A stretch of 23,441 bases of DNA from a phage. The number at the start of each line of letters is the position of its first letter. The first letter of the stretch is position 1. Made by a program: the position numbers and the translations under genes. The stretch is taken from sequence record PZ049722.1; one strand, written 5' to 3'. Positions 1 through 15,833 of this stretch are shown here, one piece after another. The notes under the pieces were generated by a model, which searched no databases, was not told where the DNA came from, and was given only the letters and a program-made list of their open reading frames with translations.

Positions 1-1147
1 TGATCAACCGACCACGCACGAGCGGGCGCTTATTTATGTGCAGGTGCGTGCTGGGCGCCGAGATGCGAAGACCCTCTGCGAGGCGCTGATCAGCGCGACC
101 AGAAGCGCGGCCGAGCACCAATCTTCTTGACGGCGCCCGCCCTTCATGAGCATGACCCACCCCGGCGGCGGCCGATCACCCTCGCGATGTTCTCCGACCT
201 GCCTTACCGCGCTGTCCATTGAGCTGATCATCAACAAGGTCGGCAACGCCCGCGCTGAAGGGGCCGGGTCGACCAGGCGCACAACATCGCTCGAGCGTGA
301 GTTCCGAAGCGGCTTGCCCCTCATGGACAAGCCCAGCAACCTGCGAGCAGATCGACATCTTAATGCTGGCTCGAGATCCAACACACACCACCGCCATCCA
401 CGACACCACCAGCGCACCCGCTACTGCGCTGCAAGGCATCCCGCCTCTGCAGCTGCGCATCGCGGCCGGCTGCCGAGACCTGCCGCGAGCTGGCTGATCG
501 CCCAGCCGGAGAAATGGACGCCCCCCGCCAAACGCGCGAGCCGTTCCGCCGCGCCGGAGCATGCATCGCCGACGGTGCGGGCCTGATGGTCGGTGACAAG
601 CGTGCGCCGATCGCCCCGCAACCCCCATGCGCGCTACGAGGAGAGATGCGCCCAGCTCCGTGCTGGTCGGCGAACGACGGTCGCTAGCATTACCACGTGG
701 TCCAGCGCGTTCATAAGGCATGACAACGGCTTCGCCTCAACCGGTGCTACACCTGCCGAGCTGACCGGCCAGCGGATCCGCTCCTGCTGCCGGAGAGCCA
801 GGCCGAGCAGACCAGCACAGACGTTGCACCCCAGCTCGCTGGATGCACCTGACCACCCTACCGCAGGCCGACAAGGTGGGAAGAGGCGCGCGCCACGCCG
901 ATTTCGGCGGCGAGATCGACCCCGTTCAAGTAACAGGCCGAATACCATGCTGCGGGCCTACCTGCCAACTGCCGAGAGCAGCGAAAGCCGCTCCGGCCTG
1001 GCCTCGGCGGAGCTGAAAGCCGCTGCAAATGCATCGAGCTGGCCTAGTCGCCCGCCCCTGGGCAGCGGCTGGACGCCGAGTCCGACTGGGGTTGCTCAAG
1101 GCCAAGGACCCCGACGGCGCCATGGAGGAGCCCCGCTCGACGCCTGA
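1..1147 (+). pseudogene. Decayed partial copy of the Mu-like transposase A gene (central to C-terminal part), several frameshifts
   Basis: ORF 146..586 contains LSIELIINKVGNARA and QRTRY, and ORF 593..1147 contains NTMLRAYLP, SRSGLAS.ELK, LGSGWTP and YPDGAMEE, all matching the 590-aa transposase at 9469..11241 but in different frames. Confidence 0.65.
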
Positions 1148-2402: not shown

Positions 2403-2828
2403 ATGGCCATCACCATCGAACAAATCATGGAGCAGGCTCAGGTGTACGCCTCGGCCTGGAGCCTGGTCGGCGGGCCGTTCGACCAGGGCAACCTGCTGCA
2501 GCAGGCCGAGCTGGAGAAGCGGTGCTGCTGGAGATGGTCACTGCCTTCGAGGACGAACCCATGCCGCAGGGGCCCAGGAAGCGCAGCTCGACCTGGCTAA
2601 GCCGCTGATCGAGTGGCACCAGCACCGCATTGGCAACCTCAGCAAGTTGCAGCAGGCGGTAGAGGGCACTGAGATCCGCCTCGGCGAGGCTGATGCCGAT
2701 CCCATCGTCCTGCAGGCGCGATGCTAAAAGGCTGGCGCTTCGCCTTGGCGATTGCCGAGCAGCAGTTCGAGAAGTTCCCGCTGTCCATCGAGCGCAAAGC
2801 TCCCACCAGCGACGAGGAGGATGACCAT
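2403..2828 (+). pseudogene. Frameshifted copy of the 141-aa early gene found intact at 7871..8296
   Basis: ORF 2403..2600 shares the first 39 residues (MAITIEQIMEQAQVYASAWSLVGGPFDQGNLLQQAELEK) with the 141-aa protein and then leaves frame; 1-bp deletions seen relative to the right arm. Confidence 0.6.
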
Positions 2829-3176
2829 GCGCGCTCCCAACGTCATCCCGCTCAGCGCCAGATCGCCGCTGAGATCTCCATCCAACACGCGCTGCCCATG
2901 TGCACCGTGCTGACCCCTGAACTGGCCGACAAGCTCCGCGCCCTCAACGACATGACCCGCCGCCTGCGCGCGGCGGGCGTGCGTATCGAGGCCGCATCCC
3001 CGCTCGACGGCAAGATCTTCATCAACGCCGAAGACTCCGACCAGCTCGCCGCATCGTTCCGCAGTGAGTGGCGCGGCGTGAGTTGGAGCACCAAAGGCGT
3101 CCACACCATCAACAGCGTCCGCCTCGGCGGCTGCCAAGTCTGCTGGCTTACGCCAGTGAAGGAGCAGGAGTCATGA
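2826..3176 (+). pseudogene. Frameshifted copy of the 118-aa early gene found intact at 7518..7874
   Basis: ORF 2721..3176 carries the C-terminal 100 residues of the 118-aa protein fused to the upstream frame; about two 1-bp deletions near 2815-2860. Confidence 0.6.
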
Positions 3177-3355
3177 GCCTCGAAGCACGCCTGCGCGAAG
3201 CGCTGGAGCTGCTCAAACGCAGCGCCGGCTACGCCTCGGCCTATCCGACCATCGGTGGCCACAAGCTCAACGACGAGATCTGCCGCTTCCGCGAGGCGGT
3301 ACAGGCCGAACTCGAAACCAACGCCCAACAAGCCGAGGAAGAAACCCATGGCTGA
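3173..3355 (+). CDS. Small hypothetical early protein (60 aa), duplicate of 7339..7521
   Basis: Internal ATG with GGAG-type RBS; identical to right-arm copy. Confidence 0.5.
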   Translation: MSLEARLREALELLKRSAGYASAYPTIGGHKLNDEICRFREAVQAELETNAQQAEEETHG

Positions 3356-3968
3356 GCAAATCGCAATCCCCGAAGGCTTCGTCAAGAATGCTGCCGGCCA
3401 TCTGGTGCCGGAACACCAGGTGCGCGAGCACGACAAGCTGCGCGACAGCGTCGCCCGCGAGCTGGCCAACCAGGCCGTGGCCATCAGCGAGGCGCTGGGC
3501 GCGTTCAAGGCTAAGGCCCTGGGCGATATCGCCGACCTGATCGCCATCTCGGCCGAGAAGTACCAGGTCAAGCTCGGCGGCAAGAAGGGCAACGTCTCGA
3601 TCGTCACCTACGACGGCCGCTACAAGATCGAGCGCGCCATGGCCGAGCGCATCACCTTCACCGAGGAGATCCTCGCGGCCAAGGAGCTGATCGACCAGTG
3701 CATCCGCAAATGGAGCGAAGGCGCCGACCAGCACCTGCGCATCCTGGTCGACCGCGCGTTCCGCGCCAACCGCCAGGGCCAGATCAAGACCGGCGACGTG
3801 CTCAGCCTGCTGCGCGTCGAGATCGAAGACCCCGACTGGCAGCGCGCGATGGAGGCCCTGAAGGACTCCATCCAGGTCAACGGCACCGCCGTATACATCC
3901 GCGTCTACCAGCGCGTCGGCAACACCGACCGTTACGAGCCCATCAGCCTCGACATTGCGAAGGTGTGA
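3348..3968 (+). CDS. Conserved phage early protein (206 aa, possibly DUF3164-like), duplicate of 6726..7346
   Basis: Identical protein on both arms; start MAEQIAIPEGF after RBS. Confidence 0.55.
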   Translation: MAEQIAIPEGFVKNAAGHLVPEHQVREHDKLRDSVARELANQAVAISEALGAFKAKALGDIADLIAISAEKYQVKLGGKKGNVSIVTYDGRYKIERAMAERITFTEEILAAKELIDQCIRKWSEGADQHLRILVDRAFRANRQGQIKTGDVLSLLRVEIEDPDWQRAMEALKDSIQVNGTAVYIRVYQRVGNTDRYEPISLDIAKV

Positions 3969-3970
3969 CC

Positions 3971-4678
3971 ATGGACCAGGATCGCATTCTCGAAAAGATC
4001 AAGAAGTGCATGGAGATGGCCAAGGGCAAGGGCTCGAATCCGAACGAGGCCGAAATCGCCCTGCGCCAGGCGCATAAGCTGATGGAGGCCTACAACCTGG
4101 AGATGGGCGACGTCCTGGCCAGCATGGCCGGTGAGGTCACCATCGAAGCCGGCTCGGATGGTACCCCACCCACCTGGCGTATCCGCCTGGCTCAGGTGTG
4201 CGCCCATGCGTTTGGCACGCGCATGATCATCACGCAGAAGCTCACGGACCACTTCGACGTTGTAGGCGCCTTCATCTTTGTGGGCTGCGCAGCGGCACCA
4301 GAGCTGAGCGGATACGCCTACCAAGTGCTGGAGCGGCAGCTGCAGAAGGCTCGACGTGAGTTCCTGCAGTCACCGAAGAACAAGCGCTGCAAGCGCTCAA
4401 CCAAGGTCGCGCGCGGCGATCACTTCGCTAACGGCTGGATTGATGCCGTGTACCTCAAGGTCGACCAGTTCGCTGGCGTTGACGACAACATCGCCGAAGC
4501 GATCGAAGCCTACATGGCGAAGCACCACGCCGACCTGGGCAAGCACGAAATGAAGCGCCGCAAGCTCAAAGCCCGCGATGAAGGTGCCGCCGAGGCCGGT
4601 TACCAGGCTGGCAAGAGCGCCCAACTGCACCACGGACTTGGCCACAAGCCCGTCGCCCGACTGACTCAGGGGGTGTGA
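3971..4678 (+). CDS. DUF2786-like phage protein (235 aa), duplicate of 6016..6723
   Basis: N-terminus MDQDRILEKIKKCMEMAKGKGSNPNEAEIALRQAHKLMEAYNLE resembles the DUF2786 signature; identical on both arms. Confidence 0.55.
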   Translation: MDQDRILEKIKKCMEMAKGKGSNPNEAEIALRQAHKLMEAYNLEMGDVLASMAGEVTIEAGSDGTPPTWRIRLAQVCAHAFGTRMIITQKLTDHFDVVGAFIFVGCAAAPELSGYAYQVLERQLQKARREFLQSPKNKRCKRSTKVARGDHFANGWIDAVYLKVDQFAGVDDNIAEAIEAYMAKHHADLGKHEMKRRKLKARDEGAAEAGYQAGKSAQLHHGLGHKPVARLTQGV

Positions 4679-4679
4679 G

Positions 4680-4904
4680 ATGCAAACCCTTGAATGCACC
4701 GTGAAGTACTACATGGGTGCCTACCAGACCAACACCGTGCGCAGCCAGCGCGCCAGCTGCAGCCACTCCGAGGACGAGGCCGTGCGCCACCTGGGCGTAA
4801 AGCTGTTCGGCGAGCAGCTCCACCACGTCGAGCGCATCGATCTCAAACCCAGCGATCAGCCGGGCATGAGCCGCTGGCTGATCGTTGGTCGGGAGGTGCA
4901 GTGA
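4680..4904 (+). CDS. Small hypothetical protein (74 aa), duplicate of 5790..6014
   Basis: Identical ORF on both arms; starts 2 nt after upstream stop. Confidence 0.45.
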   Translation: MQTLECTVKYYMGAYQTNTVRSQRASCSHSEDEAVRHLGVKLFGEQLHHVERIDLKPSDQPGMSRWLIVGREVQ

Positions 4905-5327
4905 TGGGCCATCCAATTTTCCAAGACGCCCCCTCAAGGGACATGACCAAGGCTCAGGAGCGCCAGGCCGAGCTAGATGCGCAGGTCGAAGCCTTCCTGG
5001 CCAAGGGCGGGGAGATCAAGGCCTTCGACAACTTCCGCCGTCCTGATCCAGAGTGGGCCCTGGCGCTCGAAGTCGATCAACCCCGAGCAGCAGAAGCCAG
5101 CTCAGGCTGCGCCCATCAAGGCGAAACCGGCCAAGCCCGCCGCTCCTGTGAAGGCAAAGCCGGTACCGGAGGTGCCAGCCGAACCGGTGGCGGTGGCTAC
5201 CATCGACCTCAGCGCTGAGCTGCGCGCCTTGCGCAAGCAGACTGCAGCCATCAACCGCCCGGCCTGGCGCGAGTTGAGGTCTTTCGAGGACTCGACGCCA
5301 GCAACGCGGCGCAGCAGCGCGCGATAG
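4904..5327 (+). pseudogene. Frameshifted copy of the 130-aa K/P/A-repeat protein encoded intact at 5395..5790
   Basis: Identical for 47 residues after MGHPIF, then leaves frame near 5041-5050 where the two arms differ by an indel; the proper frame continues in ORF 4977..5327. Confidence 0.6.
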
Positions 5328-5398
5328 CTGTCGTCATCCATGCCCAGTTGGCCCTTGGCGATGTGGATCTTGCTGAGTACGCCTTTCGAGATACTCAT
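5261..5398 (-). pseudogene. GemA-like (Mu gp16, DUF1018-like) gene, 5' fragment of about 46 codons cut by the inversion junction
   Basis: N-terminus MSISKGVLSKIHIAKGQLGMDDDSYRALLRRVAGVESSKDL fits the GemA family start; beyond codon 46 ORF 5102..5398 reads antisense to duplicated sequence. Confidence 0.6.
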
Positions 5399-5790
5399 GC
5401 GCGACCACCCATAGAGCAGCTCAGGCGATTAAGGCGGCGGTTGATGGCTGCAGTCTGCTTGCGCAAGGCGCGCAGCTCAGCACTGAGGTCGATGGTAGCC
5501 ACCACCACCGGTTCGGCTGGCACCTCCGGTACCGGCTTTGCCTTCACAGGAGCGGCGGGCTTGGCCGGTTTCGCCTTGATGGGCGCAGCCTGAGCTGGCT
5601 TCTGCTGCTCGGGGTTGATCGACTTCGAGCGCCAGGGCCCACTCTCGATAGGACGGCGGAAGTTGTCGAAGGCCTTGATCTCCCCGCCCTTGGCCAGGAA
5701 GGCTTCGACCTGCGCATCTAGCTCGGCCTGGCGCTCCTGAGCCTTGGTCATGTCCCTTGAGGGGGCGTCTTGGAAAATTGGATGGCCCAT
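5395..5790 (-). CDS. Hypothetical early protein (131 aa) with K/P/A-rich repeat tail
   Basis: Start MGHPIF overlaps upstream stop; contains PAQAAPIKAKPAKPAAPVKAKPVPEVPAEP. Confidence 0.5.
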   Translation of the reverse strand: MGHPIFQDAPSRDMTKAQERQAELDAQVEAFLAKGGEIKAFDNFRRPIESGPWRSKSINPEQQKPAQAAPIKAKPAKPAAPVKAKPVPEVPAEPVVVATIDLSAELRALRKQTAAINRRLNRLSCSMGGRA

Positions 5791-6014
5791 CACTGCACCT
5801 CCCGACCAACGATCAGCCAGCGGCTCATGCCCGGCTGATCGCTGGGTTTGAGATCGATGCGCTCGACGTGGTGGAGCTGCTCGCCGAACAGCTTTACGCC
5901 CAGGTGGCGCACGGCCTCGTCCTCGGAGTGGCTGCAGCTGGCGCGCTGGCTGCGCACGGTGTTGGTCTGGTAGGCACCCATGTAGTACTTCACGGTGCAT
6001 TCAAGGGTTTGCAT
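5790..6014 (-). CDS. Small hypothetical protein (74 aa)
   Basis: ORF in operon context, tight spacing to neighbours. Confidence 0.45.
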   Translation of the reverse strand: MQTLECTVKYYMGAYQTNTVRSQRASCSHSEDEAVRHLGVKLFGEQLHHVERIDLKPSDQPGMSRWLIVGREVQ

Positions 6015-6015
6015 C

Positions 6016-6723
6016 TCACACCCCCTGAGTCAGTCGGGCGACGGGCTTGTGGCCAAGTCCGTGGTGCAGTTGGGCGCTCTTGCCAGCCTGGTAACCGGCC
6101 TCGGCGGCACCTTCATCGCGGGCTTTGAGCTTGCGGCGCTTCATTTCGTGCTTGCCCAGGTCGGCGTGGTGCTTCGCCATGTAGGCTTCGATCGCTTCGG
6201 CGATGTTGTCGTCAACGCCAGCGAACTGGTCGACCTTGAGGTACACGGCATCAATCCAGCCGTTAGCGAAGTGATCGCCGCGCGCGACCTTGGTTGAGCG
6301 CTTGCAGCGCTTGTTCTTCGGTGACTGCAGGAACTCACGTCGAGCCTTCTGCAGCTGCCGCTCCAGCACTTGGTAGGCGTATCCGCTCAGCTCTGGTGCC
6401 GCTGCGCAGCCCACAAAGATGAAGGCGCCTACAACGTCGAAGTGGTCCGTGAGCTTCTGCGTGATGATCATGCGCGTGCCAAACGCATGGGCGCACACCT
6501 GAGCCAGGCGGATACGCCAGGTGGGTGGGGTACCATCCGAGCCGGCTTCGATGGTGACCTCACCGGCCATGCTGGCCAGGACGTCGCCCATCTCCAGGTT
6601 GTAGGCCTCCATCAGCTTATGCGCCTGGCGCAGGGCGATTTCGGCCTCGTTCGGATTCGAGCCCTTGCCCTTGGCCATCTCCATGCACTTCTTGATCTTT
6701 TCGAGAATGCGATCCTGGTCCAT
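6016..6723 (-). CDS. DUF2786-like phage protein (235 aa)
   Basis: Same protein as 3971..4678; internal start MDQDRILEK. Confidence 0.55.
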   Translation of the reverse strand: MDQDRILEKIKKCMEMAKGKGSNPNEAEIALRQAHKLMEAYNLEMGDVLASMAGEVTIEAGSDGTPPTWRIRLAQVCAHAFGTRMIITQKLTDHFDVVGAFIFVGCAAAPELSGYAYQVLERQLQKARREFLQSPKNKRCKRSTKVARGDHFANGWIDAVYLKVDQFAGVDDNIAEAIEAYMAKHHADLGKHEMKRRKLKARDEGAAEAGYQAGKSAQLHHGLGHKPVARLTQGV

Positions 6724-6725
6724 GG

Positions 6726-7346
6726 TCACACCTTCGCAATGTCGAGGCTGATGGGCTCGTAACGGTCGGTGTTGCCGACGCGCTGGTAGACGCGGATGTA
6801 TACGGCGGTGCCGTTGACCTGGATGGAGTCCTTCAGGGCCTCCATCGCGCGCTGCCAGTCGGGGTCTTCGATCTCGACGCGCAGCAGGCTGAGCACGTCG
6901 CCGGTCTTGATCTGGCCCTGGCGGTTGGCGCGGAACGCGCGGTCGACCAGGATGCGCAGGTGCTGGTCGGCGCCTTCGCTCCATTTGCGGATGCACTGGT
7001 CGATCAGCTCCTTGGCCGCGAGGATCTCCTCGGTGAAGGTGATGCGCTCGGCCATGGCGCGCTCGATCTTGTAGCGGCCGTCGTAGGTGACGATCGAGAC
7101 GTTGCCCTTCTTGCCGCCGAGCTTGACCTGGTACTTCTCGGCCGAGATGGCGATCAGGTCGGCGATATCGCCCAGGGCCTTAGCCTTGAACGCGCCCAGC
7201 GCCTCGCTGATGGCCACGGCCTGGTTGGCCAGCTCGCGGGCGACGCTGTCGCGCAGCTTGTCGTGCTCGCGCACCTGGTGTTCCGGCACCAGATGGCCGG
7301 CAGCATTCTTGACGAAGCCTTCGGGGATTGCGATTTGCTCAGCCAT
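6726..7346 (-). CDS. Conserved phage early protein (206 aa, possibly DUF3164-like)
   Basis: Same protein as 3348..3968. Confidence 0.55.
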   Translation of the reverse strand: MAEQIAIPEGFVKNAAGHLVPEHQVREHDKLRDSVARELANQAVAISEALGAFKAKALGDIADLIAISAEKYQVKLGGKKGNVSIVTYDGRYKIERAMAERITFTEEILAAKELIDQCIRKWSEGADQHLRILVDRAFRANRQGQIKTGDVLSLLRVEIEDPDWQRAMEALKDSIQVNGTAVYIRVYQRVGNTDRYEPISLDIAKV

Positions 7347-7521
7347 GGGTTTCTTCCTCGGCTTGTTGGGCGTTGGTTTCGAGTTCGGCCTGTACCGCCT
7401 CGCGGAAGCGGCAGATCTCGTCGTTGAGCTTGTGGCCACCGATGGTCGGATAGGCCGAGGCGTAGCCGGCGCTGCGTTTGAGCAGCTCCAGCGCTTCGCG
7501 CAGGCGTGCTTCGAGGCTCAT
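7339..7521 (-). CDS. Small hypothetical early protein (60 aa)
   Basis: Same protein as 3173..3355. Confidence 0.5.
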   Translation of the reverse strand: MSLEARLREALELLKRSAGYASAYPTIGGHKLNDEICRFREAVQAELETNAQQAEEETHG

Positions 7522-7874
7522 GACTCCTGCTCCTTCACTGGCGTAAGCCAGCAGACTTGGCAGCCGCCGAGGCGGACGCTGTTGATGGTGTGGACGCCTT
7601 TGGTGCTCCAACTCACGCCGCGCCACTCACTGCGGAACGATGCGGCGAGCTGGTCGGAGTCTTCGGCGTTGATGAAGATCTTGCCGTCGAGCGGGGATGC
7701 GGCCTCGATACGCACGCCCGCCGCGCGCAGGCGGCGGGTCATGTCGTTGAGGGCGCGGAGCTTGTCGGCCAGTTCAGGGGTCAGCACGGTGCACATGGGC
7801 AGCGCGTGTTGGATGGAGATCTCAGCGGCGATCTTGGCGCTGAGCGGGATGACGTTGGGAGCGCGCATGGTCAT
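7518..7874 (-). CDS. Hypothetical early protein (118 aa)
   Basis: Intact ORF in early operon; the left-arm copy is frameshifted. Confidence 0.5.
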   Translation of the reverse strand: MTMRAPNVIPLSAKIAAEISIQHALPMCTVLTPELADKLRALNDMTRRLRAAGVRIEAASPLDGKIFINAEDSDQLAASFRSEWRGVSWSTKGVHTINSVRLGGCQVCWLTPVKEQES

Positions 7875-8296
7875 TCCTCCTCGTCGCTGGTGGGAGCTTT
7901 GCGCTCGATGGACAGCGGGAACTTCTCGAACTGCTGCTCGGCAATCGCCAAGGCGAAGCGCCAGCCTTTTAGCATCGCGCCCTGCAGGACGATGGGATTG
8001 GCATCAGCCTCGCCGAGGCGGATCTCAGTGCCCTCTACCGCCTGCTGCAACTTGCTGAGGTTGCCAATGCGGTGCTGGTGCCACTCGATCAGCGGCTTAG
8101 CCAGGTCGAGCTGCGCTTCCTGGGCCCCTGCGGTATGGGCTTCGTCCTCGAAGGCAGTGACCATCTCCAGCAGCACCAGCTTCTCCAGCTCGGCCTGCTG
8201 CAGCAGGTTGCCCTGGTCGAACGGCCCGCCGACCAGGCTCCAGGCCGAGGCGTACACCTGAGCCTGCTCCATGATTTGTTCGATGGTGATGGCCAT
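7871..8296 (-). CDS. Hypothetical early protein (141 aa)
   Basis: Intact ORF directly downstream of the B gene; the left-arm copy is frameshifted. Confidence 0.5.
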   Translation of the reverse strand: MAITIEQIMEQAQVYASAWSLVGGPFDQGNLLQQAELEKLVLLEMVTAFEDEAHTAGAQEAQLDLAKPLIEWHQHRIGNLSKLQQAVEGTEIRLGEADANPIVLQGAMLKGWRFALAIAEQQFEKFPLSIERKAPTSDEEE

Positions 8297-8299
8297 GGC

Positions 8300-9472
8300 T
8301 CACACCCCCTTCACAACATCAGCGGTGATGCGGCTTTCGCCGATTTCGGCGGCGAGGTTGAGGGCGGCGTTGAACAGGTTGCCGATGGCCAGCGGGTAGA
8401 GCTGGCTGGCACCGTCCTTACCCGAGCTGCCCAGGCGTTCGATGATGGCCTGCACGCCGCTGGCATCGATCAGCTCGTCGAGCTGCTTGCCGGCGTGCTT
8501 GCAACGAAATGCCAGGTGCGCGTCCAGGTCACCGACGGTGATGGGCTGCAGTTGCGCAATCTCGATGCGCTGGGCCACCTCGCGCACGTCGCCGTTGCGC
8601 GGGCTGAGTTTGATCAGCAGCTCGGGCTGGCCGATGAGGATGATGGACAGCAGTTTGTCGAAGCCGTGTTCGAGCTGGTCACGCATGCGCTTGAGGTGCT
8701 TGAGCGTGGGGATGGGCAGCGAGTGCGCCTCTTCGATGATCAGCACATGGCGGAAGCCTGCGCCGTGGCTGGCTTTGAGCGTGGCGTGCATCTGCGCGAA
8801 GCGGGCTTCGGGGCTGGATTTGGCTTTCTCCAGCGGCGCCACAGCGGCCATCACAGACTCGGCAATGTGGGTGGCCTTCAGGGATTTGCCCTTGGTGTCG
8901 TTGTCCTCCATGCCCAGCACGTAGGGTTCGATGACGATCACCGGCTCATTGCGCAGGCGGTGCGCCAGGTCGCGGCGCAGCGTGCTTTTGCCGGCGCCGG
9001 ACTCGCCCACCACGGCCAGGAAGCCATCATGGCGCGCGGTCTGGTACATGCTCTCGCGGATGTAGCGGATATCGGGGCTCAGGTACATCTCATCGGCCGA
9101 CTTGAGGTCGTCGAAGGGGTCGCGGTGCAGGTTGAACGCCCGCTTGGTGTCTGGTCGCAGCACTTGTTTAGCCATTAGCATGTCGGGGCACTCCTGGGTT
9201 TCGTGATTGTTTTCCGGGGTTGCAGGGGCCTGCGCGTTGGCGCGCGCAGGCTCCATCTCTTCAAACGCGGCGCGCACAGCGTCGAACTCCGCGCCTTGTT
9301 GCATCAGGTACTCAGTGATGCCCCAGGCCAGCTGGTTCATCGGGATGCTCTTGGGCCACTGGCCGTGGTTGATCAGTTGGGCGATGGCTGCCGGGCTGAG
9401 CTTCACCGCCCTGGCCAGGTCGGCCTGGCCCTTGCCCACGCTGGCCAGCACTTGCTTGAGACGTTTCATCAC
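8300..9472 (-). CDS. Mu B-like transposition ATPase / target DNA activator (390 aa)
   Basis: Walker A GESGAGKST, N-terminal HTH-like region, sits directly downstream of and overlapping the transposase gene. Confidence 0.8.
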   Translation of the reverse strand: MMKRLKQVLASVGKGQADLARAVKLSPAAIAQLINHGQWPKSIPMNQLAWGITEYLMQQGAEFDAVRAAFEEMEPARANAQAPATPENNHETQECPDMLMAKQVLRPDTKRAFNLHRDPFDDLKSADEMYLSPDIRYIRESMYQTARHDGFLAVVGESGAGKSTLRRDLAHRLRNEPVIVIEPYVLGMEDNDTKGKSLKATHIAESVMAAVAPLEKAKSSPEARFAQMHATLKASHGAGFRHVLIIEEAHSLPIPTLKHLKRMRDQLEHGFDKLLSIILIGQPELLIKLSPRNGDVREVAQRIEIAQLQPITVGDLDAHLAFRCKHAGKQLDELIDASGVQAIIERLGSSGKDGASQLYPLAIGNLFNAALNLAAEIGESRITADVVKGV

Positions 9473-11241
9473 TCACCCCCAACCAGGCGCAGGCCTGGGC
9501 GTGCGGGCGCTTGCAGCTGGGCGACGATGGCGTCGAGCTGCTCCTCCATGGCGCCATCGGGGTAGTTGGCCTTGAGCCATTCCATCGACTCGGGCGTCCA
9601 GCCGCTGCCCAGGCGCGCGCGCAGCGCCTTGGCCAGCTCGATGCGGTTGAGCGGCTTCAGCTCCACCGAGGCCAGGCCGGAGCGGCTTTCCAGCTCTATA
9701 CCGCGCTTGGGCAGGTAGGCCGGCAGCATGGTATTGGCCTGTTCCTTGAACGGGTCGATCTCGCCGCCGAATGGCGTGGCGCGCGCCTTCTTGGCCTTCT
9801 CGGCAGCCTCGATACTGTCGGTGCCAGTGGCGAGCTGGTCCAACGTCTTCTTGGTCTGCTCGGCCTGGCTCTCCGGCAGCGAGCGGATGCCCTCGCCGAT
9901 CACTCGGCGGGTAGCACCGTTGGCGGCGAAGCCGTTGTCATCCTTGTCGACGCGCTCGACCACGTGGTAATGCTCGCGACCGTCTTCGCCGACCAGCACG
10001 AGCTGGGCGCTCTCCTGGTCGCGCCATGGGTTGCGGGTGATCAGCACACTGTCGCCGACCATCAGGCCCGGCACGTCGGCGATGCAGTACTCGGCGCCGC
10101 GGAACGGCACGCGCAGCTTGGCGGTGACCTTGCGCTTCTCCGGCTGGGCGATCGCCAGCTCGCGGCAGATCTCGGCGGCCGGCGCGATGCGCAGCTGCTC
10201 AGGGCGGATCAGCATCCAGGCGCCGTAGCGGGTGCGCTGGTGGCGGGTGTGGATGGCGGTGGCGTTGTAGTGCCGCATCCAGCGCCCGGCCAGGGCGTTG
10301 ATCTGCTCCAGGGTGCTGGGCTTGTCCATCAGGCGCAAGCCGCTCTCGAACTCACGCTCGACGATGTTGTGCGCCTGCTCGACCTGGCCCTTGGCGCGGG
10401 CGTTGCCGACCTTGTTGATGATCAGCTCGATGGACAGCGCATGGCACAGGTTGCGGAACATCGCAGAGGTCATGGCCGCACCGGGGTCGGTCATGATCAT
10501 GAAGGGCGCACCGTGGAATGGATCGTGCTCGCCACGTTTCTGCATCGCGCTGATCAGCACCTCGCAGAGGTTCTTCGCACTCTCGGCGCCCAGCACGTAC
10601 TGCACATAAATAGTGCCGCTGGTGTGGTCGGTGATCACGTAGCGCCACAGGCGCTGCTTCTCGATGCGCTTGAGATTCTCGGGCTTGCCGTCGTAGAACT
10701 CGGCCTTGTTCATGGCGCGGGCGCCGTCGTCGGCCAAGTAGAATTGGGTCGAGATCGAGGCGTCGATCTGCCAGACGTGGTTCGGGTGCAGGCTGACCAG
10801 CTCCACGGCCGGCGCCGGGCGCAGCACCTGATCCGGGTGCAGGCCGTAGGCGCGCAGGGCACGGGCGATGGCATCGAGCGACAGCGGGCGGATCTCGCCG
10901 GTGGCGCCGTCGATGATCTCGGCGCGGATCTGCCCATTGCTGCGCAGGCGCTCCACGGCGCGCTCCAGGGTGCTGAGTTGTTTATCGTTGTCGCGGATGG
11001 ACTGAATCAGCACGGCGCTGATCAGCTCCGCCTCATGCCGCTCCAGAGCCGAGGTGCCGGCATCGCTGCGACGTTTACGGGGAGTGGTCACGGTGACCTC
11101 CTTGAGCTTGCGGTAAACGGTTGCGAGGGTGATGCCCATGTCCGTTGCTGCCGCCCTGCACAGGGCGGTTTTGCTGCCGCGCGGCGCCTGCTCGATGTCT
11201 CGAGCCAGGGCTACCAGGCGTTGGGTCATCACTGCACTCAT
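9469..11241 (-). CDS. Mu A-like DDE transposase (590 aa)
   Basis: Size, N-terminal DNA-binding region, core motifs HVWQIDAS and MIMTDPGAAMTS typical of Mu/B3/D3112 transposases, followed by a B-like ATPase. Confidence 0.85.
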   Translation of the reverse strand: MSAVMTQRLVALARDIEQAPRGSKTALCRAAATDMGITLATVYRKLKEVTVTTPRKRRSDAGTSALERHEAELISAVLIQSIRDNDKQLSTLERAVERLRSNGQIRAEIIDGATGEIRPLSLDAIARALRAYGLHPDQVLRPAPAVELVSLHPNHVWQIDASISTQFYLADDGARAMNKAEFYDGKPENLKRIEKQRLWRYVITDHTSGTIYVQYVLGAESAKNLCEVLISAMQKRGEHDPFHGAPFMIMTDPGAAMTSAMFRNLCHALSIELIINKVGNARAKGQVEQAHNIVEREFESGLRLMDKPSTLEQINALAGRWMRHYNATAIHTRHQRTRYGAWMLIRPEQLRIAPAAEICRELAIAQPEKRKVTAKLRVPFRGAEYCIADVPGLMVGDSVLITRNPWRDQESAQLVLVGEDGREHYHVVERVDKDDNGFAANGATRRVIGEGIRSLPESQAEQTKKTLDQLATGTDSIEAAEKAKKARATPFGGEIDPFKEQANTMLPAYLPKRGIELESRSGLASVELKPLNRIELAKALRARLGSGWTPESMEWLKANYPDGAMEEQLDAIVAQLQAPARPGLRLVGGE

Positions 11242-12786: not shown

Positions 12787-13058
12787 GCGCTGCGCTCCAT
12801 CGGTACGACGACCAGGGCGCCGGATTGGTTGATGCCGGGTTGGCCACCGAGGGCCGTCGCCAACTGCTCGTGCAGGCTCATGGCGTCTTCACGCCAGCCT
12901 TCGGCGTTCTCCTCCATGCGGGCCAGGTCGGCGCGCAGGCGGGCGTTCTCTTCGTCCAGGCGTACGACCTCCTGGCAGAGCTGCTCCAGGGCCTGTGCGT
13001 CCAGGCGTGCCAGCAGCGTGCGGATCTCAATGGCCTTACTCATCGTCAGCCACTCCAA
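12783..13058 (-). CDS. Small coiled-coil protein (about 86-91 aa)
   Basis: ORF with heptad-like leucine and charged pattern; start may be the internal MSKAIEIR. Confidence 0.4.
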   Translation of the reverse strand: MEWLTMSKAIEIRTLLARLDAQALEQLCQEVVRLDEENARLRADLARMEENAEGWREDAMSLHEQLATALGGQPGINQSGALVVVPMERSA

Positions 13059-13563
13059 AGTCGAGTTGAGGGGTTTGCGCCTGGGCGACGTTGCCGTGGT
13101 GCCAGGCGAGGGATTCGAGACCGGCGCGGATGGCGTCCAGGGTCTGCTCGGCGGTTTGCTTGCCGTCGTAGAAGGCCATCAGCGCGCCGGTGGTGTTGTG
13201 CAGCACGCCCTGCAGCTGCTGCAGGTCGCTGGCGTTGCAGGCCTTGCCCACGGGGATGTCCACCAACAGCTTGCCGTGGGCGGCAGCCAGGTAACGGGTG
13301 ATCAGGGGCAGGCCGCAGGCTTTCTCCAATGGCAGCACCATGGTCAGCGGCAGGCGGCCATTGCCCATCCACTTGTAGAGCGAGCTGGCGTTGTTCTGGC
13401 ACAGATGGTCTGTGGCAAGCCGCTCGATCCCGCGGTTATGGCGCTGCAATGCATGCTCGGCGCAGCCGCTCATAGCCTCAGCGGGCGAGCGCGGTACCCA
13501 GTGTTTCCAATTGCGGCGGGTCATTGGATGGGGCTCCTTTGGGCCGTCTGTTGCGGCTTCCAA
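13036..13563 (-). CDS. Hypothetical early-region protein (175 aa), possible regulatory protein
   Basis: High-GC3 ORF that starts next to a divergent intergenic region. Confidence 0.5.
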   Translation of the reverse strand: MEAATDGPKEPHPMTRRNWKHWVPRSPAEAMSGCAEHALQRHNRGIERLATDHLCQNNASSLYKWMGNGRLPLTMVLPLEKACGLPLITRYLAAAHGKLLVDIPVGKACNASDLQQLQGVLHNTTGALMAFYDGKQTAEQTLDAIRAGLESLAWHHGNVAQAQTPQLDFGVADDE

Positions 13564-13647
13564 TCAAAAACTCTGTTTCACCCTTGGCAATGTCGTTACC
13601 AACGGGCCAGTCTGTTGGGGTACATTCACCAACGCGGAGAGCCCGCC

Positions 13648-13968
13648 ATGGCTACTGAGAATCAGGTTTCGGAACAAATCCGCCGCGAGGTTGCGGCTGC
13701 AACAGCGGAGCTTCGGCAGAAGCTGGATCAACAGGACGAGTGGATGAATGGCCTGTTACTGGCGCTTGAGGATCTGATGCAGGCGCTACTACGGGCGAAT
13801 CCTGAGATGGTTGAGCCTGCGATTGCGGACTGGCAGAAAGCGGCTGAGCACTACGAGCTGGCGACTCAAGGCCTGTACCCGGATGAATCACCGGAGCGTC
13901 TTGAGCCACGGAAGATGCTGTACCGGATGCTGAACGCGACAGGCGCGCTGCAGCACCGGCAGGGGTGA
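13648..13968 (+). CDS. Hypothetical small helical protein (106 aa), antisense to the early operon, atypical codon usage
   Basis: Reading frame with GC3 about 70 percent and rare codons (TTA, CTA, ACA); the antisense frame there has GC3 about 40 percent; ATG at 13648. Confidence 0.5.
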   Translation: MATENQVSEQIRREVAAATAELRQKLDQQDEWMNGLLLALEDLMQALLRANPEMVEPAIADWQKAAEHYELATQGLYPDESPERLEPRKMLYRMLNATGALQHRQG

Positions 13969-14293
13969 TCAGGCACTTGCCGTTGGCGCGAGTGGCAGCG
14001 GCCAGGATGGCGGCAACGGTTGCTGGGGCGTCTTGAACCTGCAGGCGGTCACCAATGATGCGCCCAGCGCCAATCAGCATCAGGCGATCAACCAGGCGGC
14101 GGGTGCCTTCGGTAGCCGGGGTGCGGTCGACGCAGACGCTCAGCTTGGCTTGAGCATCGGCCAGGTGCCAGGCGATGGCGCATTCGTCACCGGGGCCACA
14201 GGCGATAACGGCGTCGAGCGCGGCGCGCCAGGCGTCCATTGGGTGGGGGATCAGCTCGATCTCTTCGAGCGCGATTTGCGGTTGGTCGGTCAT
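13652..14293 (-). CDS. Early gene after ner (gene X); coding signal holds only from 14293 to about 13969 and there is no stop until 13652
   Basis: ATG at 14293 with GAGGG RBS; high GC3 for the first 109 codons, then a low-complexity S/P/A/Q tail antisense to the 13648..13968 gene. Confidence 0.4.
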   Translation of the reverse strand: MTDQPQIALEEIELIPHPMDAWRAALDAVIACGPGDECAIAWHLADAQAKLSVCVDRTPATEGTRRLVDRLMLIGAGRIIGDRLQVQDAPATVAAILAAATRANGKCLITPAGAAARLSRSASGTASSVAQDAPVIHPGTGLESPARSAQPLSASPQSQAQPSQDSPVVAPASDPQAPVTGHSSTRPVDPASAEAPLLQPQPRGGFVPKPDSQ

Positions 14294-14325
14294 GGCTGTG
14301 ACCCTCTGGCGGCGGTTGCGTTGGG

Positions 14326-14535
14326 TTAGGCGGCGACGGGTTCGCCGGTTTTGATGCCTAGGGCCACGGCGATTTCGTGGGCCTGGCCGTAGTTGGCTTT
14401 GTCGAAGCCGTTGAGCACGCGGTACACCGCGTTGCGCTTGTAGCCGTGCTCTTCGGCCCACTGGGTGATGGTGATGCCGCGCTGGCGGAATCGCTGTTTG
14501 ACCTGTTCAGGGGTCAGTGCCTTCTGGGTAGCCAT
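14326..14535 (-). CDS. Ner-like DNA-binding protein (69 aa)
   Basis: MATQKALTPEQVKQRFRQRGITITQWAEEHGYKRNAVYRVLNG...AHEIAVALGI fits the Ner/Nlp pattern; AAGGAG RBS; divergent from the repressor gene. Confidence 0.7.
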   Translation of the reverse strand: MATQKALTPEQVKQRFRQRGITITQWAEEHGYKRNAVYRVLNGFDKANYGQAHEIAVALGIKTGEPVAA

Positions 14536-14635: not shown

Positions 14636-15073
14636 ATGATTGGTGAGCGACTAAAAGAAGAGCGCAAGCGCTTAGGTCTTACCCAGCCCGGGTTGGCCGA
14701 GGTTGCTGGCGCGGCTAAGAGGACTGTCATTGACTGGGAGAAGGGCGTTTCGTCGCCTACAGCAGCCCAGTTAGAGGCACTTTCCAGGGTTGGAGTGGAT
14801 GTGCTTTTCGTCGTCACCGGTATTCGCGGTCAAACTGTGACCAATGAGTCAAATAGCGCGACGTCGCGCTATTTGACTGAAAACTCAAATCCGGTCACGC
14901 ATTCAGTGGAGGCTGAGCCGCTGGGTGAATACCGGCTAAACCGGCGCGAGAAGGCGCTACTGGAGAATTACCGAGGCTCGGACGAAGAAGGACGACGAGC
15001 CATGGAGAGCACCGCGAGTGCTCTGGCGCACAGGGACAGTGCGAAGAAGAAAGGACGCCAAGGCGGCGAATGA
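14636..15073 (+). CDS. XRE-family HTH transcriptional regulator, putative prophage repressor (145 aa)
   Basis: N-terminus ERLKEERKRLGLTQPGLAEVAGAAKRTVIDWEKG is a Cro/C1-type HTH; divergent from the ner-like gene across the operator. Confidence 0.7.
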   Translation: MIGERLKEERKRLGLTQPGLAEVAGAAKRTVIDWEKGVSSPTAAQLEALSRVGVDVLFVVTGIRGQTVTNESNSATSRYLTENSNPVTHSVEAEPLGEYRLNRREKALLENYRGSDEEGRRAMESTASALAHRDSAKKKGRQGGE

Positions 15074-15095
15074 CAGCGCGTATGGGGATTAGGGA

Positions 15096-15833
15096 ATGAG
15101 CAAGGCTCTGATTGTTCTAGGGGTGGTTTTATCTCTGACAGGATGTGCAACTGACTACAGCAAGAAAACCCCGGCTGAAGTGGCAAAGGAGGTGCGTGTT
15201 CTCGACAGTGAGTTCAATGCGCATCGCCTGCTGATGGCGCCAGTGGTGAAAGCGAGCCCCATGTTCGGCATGAACTATTCAGCTCGTTTGGTTAGATCCC
15301 AGGCAAAAGCTGATGGCAGCGTTACACACGTGTTGACCGTTGATTGGGACTACTCAAGTAGCCGATGGATGTTTTTCAGCTCCGCGACGTTGCCGGGCGC
15401 TAGGTCGCTGGTGGTGCGTGCCAACGACAGGCATGTGCGTAGCTGCGGTAGCTATGGCAGTTGCAGTTACACGGAAAGGGTCTCGGCGATCATTCCGCTG
15501 GATGTACTGATTGGGCTTGCTGCAAGTCGTAGCGACATGAACATCAGATTCGGTTCACAGCAGGGCTACGTGGATCTGGCTCTACCGGCAAACTACGTTC
15601 TCGGTTACCTGCAGGGCACCTCAACAATCGCTGAGGCGCAAGGAGGCTCTGCGGCTCCAGCTCCTGCCGCCTCTCGAATCCCGAAATGGGAGCCTGTCCC
15701 AACTCGCCCTGCGGGCCAGCCTGCTGAGGCGGTGGCCAAGAGCAAGGAACAGCAGCTCCAGGAGCTAAAGAACACGCCGGGGCTGAGTTACGAGGAATAT
15801 CAGCGGCGGTATCGGATGATCATGGGGCAGTGA
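15096..15833 (+). CDS. Lipoprotein (245 aa), candidate lysogenic-conversion or superinfection-exclusion factor
   Basis: Signal peptide with lipobox LSLTGC; ATG 23 nt after the repressor stop with GGGA RBS; codon usage appears AT-richer than the phage core. Confidence 0.65.
   Translation: MSKALIVLGVVLSLTGCATDYSKKTPAEVAKEVRVLDSEFNAHRLLMAPVVKASPMFGMNYSARLVRSQAKADGSVTHVLTVDWDYSSSRWMFFSSATLPGARSLVVRANDRHVRSCGSYGSCSYTERVSAIIPLDVLIGLAASRSDMNIRFGSQQGYVDLALPANYVLGYLQGTSTIAEAQGGSAAPAPAASRIPKWEPVPTRPAGQPAEAVAKSKEQQLQELKNTPGLSYEEYQRRYRMIMGQ

Follow-up and report, generated by a model that had tools for sequence, protein, structure and literature searches.

How does a phage reading frame come to stay open across the full length of a gene encoded on the opposite strand? 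This question is raised by a locus in sequence record PZ049722.1, a stretch of phage DNA of 23,441 nucleotides (nt) that was analysed as a whole and is referred to here as the window; it contains the lysis/lysogeny switch, or early/immunity region, of a transposable Pseudomonas prophage of the B3-like (Beetrevirus) type. On the minus strand, an open reading frame (ORF) starts with an ATG at 14293 and meets its first in-frame stop, the TAG at 13652-13654, after 213 amino acids (aa). On the plus strand, an ORF of 106 aa, with a GGAG sequence 8 nt 5' of its start, runs from the ATG at 13648 to the TGA at 13966-13968. As the minus-strand stop falls on codons 2-3 of the plus ORF (ATG GCT ACT), the whole plus-strand gene lies within the overlap. 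An earlier note had observed, correctly, that the minus ORF continues past 13968 without a stop, and had tentatively ascribed this to a mosaic junction or insertion by which the original 3' end was lost, or to a hidden indel. Our analyses lead to a different explanation, to which we assign a probability of roughly 0.7: the two ORFs form an antisense pair in the B3-like switch, and an unconstrained tail of the minus ORF is held open so that the early transcript stays translated across the plus gene.

The two parts of the minus ORF differ in composition. The G + C contents at the first, second and third codon positions are 0.74/0.51/0.76 for codons 1-108 and 0.74/0.66/0.39 for codons 109-213; the fall in third-position G + C content (GC3) from 0.76 to 0.39, which had been noticed before, falls at the plus stop codon. 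At its own codon positions the plus ORF has a coding-like distribution (0.74/0.38/0.66). In this antisense register, minus position 1 is paired with plus position 1, and minus position 2 corresponds to plus position 3. The part of the minus ORF that reads through antisense to the plus gene, hereafter the tail, comprises residues 110-213 (13655-13966, minus strand) and is rich in P, A, S and Q.

In the plus frame, the summed pairwise differences at codon positions 1, 2 and 3 were 1204/993/2160 in the close set of homologues and 1151/970/1598 in distant viral contigs. Substitutions are thus most frequent at the third and rarest at the second position, indicating purifying selection on the plus gene. 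Nine homologues of the plus-strand protein were found (106-110 aa, 53-98% identity), and a profile search of 1.84 billion representatives recovered 71 cluster representatives of ~95-135 aa with near full-length matches. The window protein, with its motifs QDEWMNGL and LEPRKMLYRML, fits the shared motifs (DDWANG and LEARKMLYR) and the conserved columns (D30, G35, W62, E86, K89 and L91) of this uncharacterised family. Its AlphaFold2 model is all-helical, with three helices and a predicted local distance difference test score (pLDDT) of 79, and its Shine-Dalgarno (SD) sequence and start codon are conserved in an alignment of 15 loci. The plus ORF (13648-13968) is therefore a real gene under purifying selection, in agreement with the earlier view of a coherent helical ORF of 106 aa on this strand. 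The family profile is present in neither Pfam nor PHROGs, tblastn of the protein against 50,697 phage records returned no match, and a scan of genome contigs for the family gave no confirmed locus.

The reverse assignment, in which the 213-aa minus-strand protein is the genuine product and the plus ORF no more than its shadow, is hardly conceivable. Long shadow ORFs do arise in high-GC genomes, and many annotations call the minus ORF only (B3ORF16, PM105_17 and Fc02 gp17), as part of an inconsistent annotation of this locus: depending on the pipeline, it is given the long minus ORF, the small plus gene or neither of them. However, variation peaks at the third positions of the plus codons, which are the second positions of the minus codons, and the minus tail has a low GC3. 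The plus family, moreover, retains its length and motifs through 71 clusters that include low-GC phages, its helical model is confident, its SD sequence and start are conserved, and the analogous protein Olg1 of phage Fc02 has been purified (PMC9936078). It had been suggested that a full-length 213-aa homologue in relatives would speak for the minus strand. Such homologues do exist (P0010-P0012), but they do not discriminate between the strands because they are encoded by the same DNA as the antisense gene, and it is the codon-position test that separates the two.

Upstream of the overlap, the minus ORF belongs to a known phage family. It matched phrog_38063, a group of unknown function, over residues 6-129 (E = 1e-29), and BLASTP aligned it with ORF10 of Fc02 (48% identity over 108 aa, E = 5e-32); its N-terminal part is 76% identical to PM105_17 and 68% identical to the D14F homologue. 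This gene 10 homologue (13652-14293, minus strand, 213 aa plus the TAG) had no match in Pfam, NCBIfam or PADLOC, and phrog_38063 was its only PHROG. We found 60 gene 10 homologues, nearly all of which have a low-complexity tail, and the shortest is not below 146 aa. The conserved N-terminal helical domain, residues 1 to ~86 (14036-14293, minus strand), has invariant or near-invariant columns between residues 1 and 77, and its model contains helices at residues 18-31, 37-51 and 62-86 with pLDDT values of 62-80. Next to the plus stop codon lies a peptide motif, (I/L)LxxATRxNGKCL(I/L) (13967-14008, minus strand), which is the last segment of the minus-strand product under amino acid selection. 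Its extended form, (L)LxxATRxNGKCLL(T)xx(D/E)A, is found in the window and in loci L003, L005-L015, L026-L031 and L034-L038. The motif adjoins the 3' end of the plus gene in 10 of 10 close and eight distant loci, despite very different N-terminal parts, and when minus ORFs with the motif from distant relatives were scanned against PHROGs, only their unrelated N-terminal parts were matched. Upstream of the overlap, the minus frame varies mainly at its third codon positions; from the plus stop codon onwards, the greatest variability lies instead at minus position 2, the counterpart of plus position 3. The strand under selection switches at 13968, exactly where a switch of the coding strand had been proposed.

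Past this point, no constraint from the amino acids of the tail was detectable, as the plus gene shows no less synonymous change than its neighbours. Among codons for identical residues, the fraction with a synonymous difference is 0.27-0.53 in the plus gene and ~0.21-0.63 in the neighbouring cII-like, IclR-like, ner-like and DUF3102 genes of the same locus pairs. The pattern expected of dual coding, with constraint in both frames and lowered synonymous change in the overlap, was not found; the minus frame shows stop avoidance only. The tail is predicted to be disordered, with residues 107-213 of the 213-aa model having pLDDT values below ~55 and no secondary structure.

Stop codons are nevertheless kept out of the tail frame. 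Across 55 ordinary genes taken from these phages, the register of the tail contains 3.4 stops per 100 codons, the highest value of the three antisense registers, and in 56 ordinary genes it was free of stops over 103 codons in 3.5% of the segments scanned. The tail frame, by comparison, has no internal stop in nine of the ten close homologues. When synonymous codons were shuffled within each gene, the probability of an open frame was 0.03-0.46, and ~13 stops were expected against none observed in eight non-redundant sequences; calibration of the shuffle on the 55 control genes gave 319 observed and 314.8 expected stops. The codons responsible can be identified. Before a codon starting with A, stop-making synonyms were used at 2 of 62 sites (both in locus L014), compared with 31% (335/1098) in the controls (Fisher p = 4e-7) and 30% elsewhere in the same genes, and four mutually divergent sequences used them at 0 of 32 sites where 11.1 were expected (p = 1.6e-5). 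All four isoleucine codons that precede an A-starting codon are ATA.

The same holds for more distant phages. We surveyed 14 IMG/VR loci of distant plus-family members, and the tail register was open in all eight distinct sequences that have the motif ORF, low-GC phages (GC3 0.42-0.49) included; the other two antisense registers of these low-GC relatives hold 3-6 stops. In all, 16 of 18 distinct motif-carrying relatives have a tail frame without stops. For locus L037, the shuffle gave P = 0.003 with 4.1 stops expected. An internal control is provided by three family members that have no motif ORF and carry stops in the tail register. These comparisons show that the tail frame is kept stop-free by selection on the synonymous codons of the plus gene. 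As far as our searches show, such selection for an open frame in which the amino acids are free to vary has not been described.

This active avoidance of minus-frame stops contradicts an accidental read-through, and with it the idea that a recent insertion, or a sequencing or assembly indel, deprived the early gene of its stop or its true 3' end and left an unselected tail behind; we consider such an event highly improbable. It is true that the slot occupied by the plus gene is mosaic. In a megablast comparison with 43 Pseudomonas phages, matches covered 13000-13655 and then the ner region, the stretch in between being unmatched; since similarity to PM105, D14F, B3-type phages and others stops at 13655 and relatives hold other genes in the slot, the earlier note is supported as regards a mosaic. 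The composition also changes sharply at 13968, and a palindrome with ~2.7-kb arms elsewhere in the window means that assembly quality is not beyond doubt. However, no original 3' end was removed: no frameshifted or other remnant of an alternative gene 10 C-terminus (D14F-type, HTH (helix-turn-helix)-type or other) was found in any frame between 13400 and 14100. The same continuity of the frame is seen in P0010-P0012 (82-98% identity), in eight of nine independently assembled relatives with the plus gene and in eight more distant viral contigs, which argues against a hidden indel, and the homologous full-length protein of Fc02 was seen on gels (PMC9936078). The comparison of syntenic regions suggested in the earlier note thus confirmed that the slot is variable among relatives, but the read-through is common to the relatives with the plus gene and to Olg1-type loci and is no accident of the window.

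The read-through extends to unrelated slot genes. In B3, JBD25, Fc02 and their relatives, PM105, L025, L023 and L024, the gene 10 frame crosses the slot gene in the same register, including the unrelated Olg1-type genes of B3, Fc02 and PM105, and it stops at or within a few nt of the slot-gene ATG (ATG ACT A, TTATG or ATG GCT A). The TAG of the window (13652-13654, minus strand) lies in the flank that is conserved between cassette types, just inside the limit of megablast similarity; without it, the minus frame would be open to 13480, within the cII-like gene. The slot proteins of B3, JBD25, Fc02, PM105 and L023-L025 (L016-L025) look unrelated by BLASTP, but a weak pattern (hydrophobic-x-L-A-x-x-L-x3-G-hydrophobic-D-x3-L) is common to them, and four of its columns are invariant when seven sequences are aligned. 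On the basis of this pattern, the Olg1, PM105, L023, L024 and L025 proteins may form one fast-evolving superfamily, and for this reason we count no fewer than two unrelated families, with the D14F type in addition, rather than five or six independent slot cassettes.

The closest characterised system is the olg1 (sie1)/olg2/gene 10 locus of Fc02, which is also present in B3, JBD25, JBD67, H72, Fc22 and U3. RNA-seq of the Fc02 lysogen placed the promoter pC1 directly 5' of olg1, with a transcript of ~1.7 kb running into the repressor gene, and olg1/sie1 encodes a 7.9-kDa exclusion protein expressed in lysogeny; gene 10 follows ner in the early operon transcribed from pE and is antisense to and overlaps olg1 (PMC9936078). 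Both Olg1 and ORF10 were detected from plasmids, and each conferred superinfection exclusion (PMC9936078). We computed a mass of 7.96 kDa for the 74-aa antisense ORF of Fc02, matching Olg1. The window resembles Fc02 in the order of repressor, ner, gene 10 and cII-like gene, in its homologous gene 10 N-terminal domain, and in having a small antisense gene that lies wholly within the 3' part of gene 10 and begins beside a conserved intergenic region. The gene 10 frame has the same antisense register in both and stops on antisense codons 2-3 (ATG ACT A in the B3 type, ATG GCT A in the window), and substitutions in the Fc02-type antisense gene are likewise dominated by third positions (154/100/452).

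The differences are equally clear. The slot gene of the window is not related to Olg1 (BLASTP found nothing, and hhalign gave probabilities of 0.2% and 0.5%) and is equivalent to it by position only; its product has 106 aa, compared with 74 aa in Fc02. Gene 10 of the window has an additional ATRxNGKCLL motif that B3-type gene 10 lacks. Fc02 has a second overlapping ORF on the same strand, olg2 (~20.7 kDa), which starts 25 nt after the olg1 AUG (PMC9936078), whereas no olg2-like ORF was found on the plus strand at 13650-14400 of the window, where the largest others are of 40-98 aa and start far downstream. A G+C-rich hairpin, GCCGCGAGGTTGCGGC, is present at 13682-13697, 35-50 nt into the plus gene, and scored as terminator-like on the minus strand; a stem-loop after the olg1 start, in a similar place, has been described in Fc02 (PMC9936078). 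In that study, gene 10 is regarded as coding throughout, and stop avoidance in a tail free of amino acid constraint is not reported (PMC9936078). Genes 9 and 10 of Ps56 have also been linked to superinfection exclusion, gene 10 reportedly blocking entry of the DNA of the superinfecting phage, as cited in the Fc02 study (PMC9936078); the minus ORF of the window is a gene 10 homologue, with ~48-59% identity between its N-terminal domain and the B3-type proteins. The olg1/gene 10 module goes unmentioned in a review of exclusion systems. The arrangement in the window is a variant of the published Fc02 olg1/gene 10 module with an unrelated family of slot genes, and that family is new, widespread and unnamed, occupying the slot in which Fc02 has its superinfection-exclusion gene.

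The intergenic region in front of the plus gene helps to place this gene in a transcription programme. The earlier note was right that the gene has an intergenic region of its own, but its left limit is not 13564, which is the end of a TTG-extended version of the cII-like ORF; homology places the start of that ORF at the ATG at 13527, and the divergent region between the cII-like and slot genes extends from 13528 to 13647. It is conserved in the alignment of 15 loci, which covers all cassette types including Fc02 and B3. A palindrome, TTGGCAA-N5-TTACCAA with the spacer tgtcg, is located at 13584-13602 (TTGGCAA-N5-TTRCCAA across the 15 loci), and a GTACATTCAC box at 13620-13629 and the SD sequence GGAG at 13636-13639 are conserved in the same loci. 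Judged by sequence, the palindrome and the GTACATTCAC box look like an operator or promoter. A simple sigma-70 scan found no site in 13528-13647. A sigma-54 promoter was rejected: the TTGGCAA-N5-TTGCC spacing of B3 and Fc02 mimics -24/-12 elements, but where these have the GC of a -12 element, the window and many relatives read TTAC or TTTC. Nor does the spacing suit a lambda CII-type TTGC-N6-TTGC site.

By position, this region is the equivalent of the pC1 region of Fc02, and by analogy it would have promoter activity. The plus gene lies divergently ~114-123 nt from the cII-like gene in every locus in which that neighbour is called, while the neighbour on its right varies. As it stands just 3' of the conserved region that holds pC1 in Fc02, it is most likely expressed in the lysogen, as the first gene of a presumed pC1-type transcript towards the repressor. 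Morons are prophage accessory genes with a promoter of their own that are expressed in lysogens, such as the exclusion genes of the lambda rexAB and sieB type. The plus gene is moron-like in being small, variable, located beside the immunity region, in the same orientation as the repressor and lower in GC3 than the lytic genes. Unlike morons, however, it is not placed between transcription units but is embedded antisense in an essential early operon, and consequently the early reading frame must cross it.

We therefore return to the antisense pair as the explanation that we favour. The plus gene would be an accessory gene in the slot filled by olg1/sie1 in Fc02, expressed in the lysogen from a pC1-type promoter whose transcript continues to the repressor, and the minus ORF would be expressed from pE after induction; both suggestions draw on Fc02 and on the conservation of the locus. 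The selected property of the tail would then be translation itself, with ribosomes occupying the early transcript over the whole stretch antisense to the plus gene. Such coverage could prevent Rho-dependent polarity arising from C-rich untranslated RNA upstream of the cII-like and transposase genes, or, alternatively, pairing of the early RNA with the lysogenic sense RNA. Translation would also have to stop before the regulatory intergenic region and the start of the cII-like gene, which it could do at the TAG in the conserved ATG-GCT-A junction. Four observations suggest that coverage by ribosomes is what matters. In L008 and L012, which have no gene 10 N-terminal domain, a mini-ORF consisting of motif and tail reads through the whole plus gene, and its start is placed for translational coupling (TGATG after ner in L008; ATGAATAA in L012). 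D14F has a second minus ORF that spans most of the plus ORF left uncovered by gene 10. The minus-strand RNA over the tail has a C/G ratio of 1.39, and loss of the TAG would carry translation into the cII-like gene.

The main rival explanation retains a role for the tail as a protein segment, a disordered extension rich in P, A and S that acts as a spacer, a tether or a solubility or aggregation module and in which length and composition matter but sequence does not. Selection against stops is real and would be expected under it, full-length ORF10 of Fc02 is produced, occurs in the insoluble fraction and gives exclusion (PMC9936078), and the low-complexity ends and minimum length of the gene 10 homologues are in keeping with it, as is the fact that a sequence rich in P, A, S, T and G arises automatically where minus position 2 complements a G/C-rich plus position 3. 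Against it, neither an amino acid constraint nor a lowered synonymous change in the plus gene accompanies the tail, and the tails opposite unrelated slot genes show no sequence similarity, each being the antisense of its own slot gene. The mini-ORFs retain the tail although they have almost no N-terminal part, the low-GC relatives keep the frame open with a quite different tail composition, and L014 and D14F manage without a full tail. The nonsense mutants published for Fc02 gene 10 are at codons 5 and 9 only (PMC9936078) and are thus uninformative on the tail. On balance, we regard a functional disordered tail as unlikely, though deserving of serious consideration.

A second rival treats the ORF of motif and tail and the plus gene as a functional pair. 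The lytic minus-strand product might, through its ATRxNGKCLL module, antagonise or regulate the plus-strand protein or its mRNA, with the overlap maintaining genetic linkage of the pair. The motif and the plus gene do occur together in a wide variety of phages and behind dissimilar N-terminal parts, family members in which the motif ORF is missing also have no open frame, and by analogy with Fc02 the two genes would be expected to act in opposite phases of the life cycle. The motif, however, also precedes other C-termini and slot genes (D14F, P0015/16/19/32 and P0067/68), ~100 unconstrained open codons are left unexplained, and the interaction is purely postulated; we consider it very improbable that such a pairing accounts for the overlap. 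Shadow ORFs of high-GC genomes offer another comparison for the tail, which resembles them in composition and in its low GC3 as the antisense of a coding sequence. Unlike them, it occupies the most stop-prone register, is fused to a real translated gene, remains open in low-GC relatives and depends on non-random synonymous codons.

Several points weigh against the explanation by translation across the antisense gene. L014 has a stop after 69 tail codons, and gene 10 ends early in D14F-type phages; that of D14F itself possesses a real C-terminal segment and terminates 105 nt within the plus ORF. The motif is under amino acid selection, and the minus ORF is therefore not merely a track for ribosomes. 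The tests for stop avoidance pool related sequences whose synonymous sites, though largely randomised, are not completely so, which makes the p-values approximate. The plus-strand protein had no match in Pfam, PHROGs, NCBIfam or PADLOC, no significant match among PDB sequence profiles, and no hit below E = 2.5 when its model was searched against BFVD and PDB folds. For the activity of a pC1-type promoter, the expression of the plus gene in the lysogen and the translation of the tail, the argument is drawn from Fc02 and from sequence. If the protein needed a disordered tail of minimum length, an open frame would be selected just as well, and Rho-dependent polarity as the cause of this selection is likewise an inference.

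The surrounding genes conform to the switch region of B3-like phages, with divergent repressor and ner-like genes, an early operon in the order ner, gene 10 and cII-like gene that continues to the transposase, and synteny with PM105, D14F, B3 and Fc02. The immunity repressor (14636-15073, plus strand; Pfam HTH_3, phrog_8) is divergent from the ner-like HTH gene, the first of the early operon (14326-14535, minus strand; phrog_925, E = 1.5e-32), and a sigma-70-like site is present on the side of the latter (14615-14587, minus strand). Gene 10 is the second gene of this operon, 32 nt after ner. Past the overlap follows the cII-like activator gene (13036-13527, minus strand; phrog_101, E = 5e-30), with its start set by homology to PM105_16 and others, and then genes for an IclR-like regulator and a DUF3102 protein, listed between the cII-like gene and the transposase (9469-11241, minus strand; phrog_310), and for transposition protein B (8300-9472, minus strand). 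GC3 is 0.59 in the repressor, 0.62 in the lipoprotein-like gene after it and 0.66 in the plus gene, compared with 0.81-0.88 in the lytic genes; the two transcription programmes are thus split in GC3, the lysogeny-side genes (14636-15833 and the 106-aa gene) at 0.59-0.66 and the lytic genes at 0.81-0.88.

PM105 and D14F carry a second, unrelated plus-strand gene of 106 aa between ner and gene 10 (PM105_18, at 2831-3151 of L001, and its D14F homologue, at 2945-3265 of L002, both on the plus strand). The upstream frame of gene 10 is open across this gene as well, giving GTG-extended ORFs of 402 or 340 aa. No counterpart of this second gene is present in the window. Further to the left, positions 2558-8139 of the window form a near-perfect palindrome around a unique centre of 176 nt (5260-5435), with arms at 2860-5044/5650-7834 (2185 nt, 100%), 5046-5259/5436-5649 (99%) and 2558-2821/7875-8139 (99-100%). 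The palindrome is an inverted duplicate of ~2.7 kb of distal early-operon genes (phrog_421 and phrog_2043), and synteny with B3 places the expected left end of the phage near its centre; it could be a fold-back artefact of assembly or a real inverted partial duplication of the end of a transposable prophage. To the left of it, positions 1-2557 contain no convincing coding ORF, the long ORFs there all being shadow-like and rich in R, P and A; the one at 176-721 (minus strand) had no PHROG match. An Rfam scan of the whole window, including 1-2557, identified no family.

Taken together, our data indicate that both strands are used at this locus, in different ways, and they provide a natural case, with an internal control, of a frame that is held open where its amino acids are under no constraint, which bears on how overlap and polarity shape codon usage. 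We tentatively propose that the tail is a translated spacer of ~100 codons whose sole selected property is the absence of stops, maintained across this family of transposable phages (GC3 0.42-0.8) for read-through of the early operon. If this is true, the cost of the spacer would be borne by the synonymous codons of the embedded gene, including its forced use of the rare ATA, and this would represent a distinct kind of constraint on overlapping genes, in which the integrity of an ORF is selected and its protein sequence is not. It would also suggest a general rule for the lodging of antisense accessory genes within operons. Finally, as the members of the plus-strand family are located in the slot of the Fc02 exclusion gene, they may by analogy constitute a set of candidates for prophage defence or exclusion functions.

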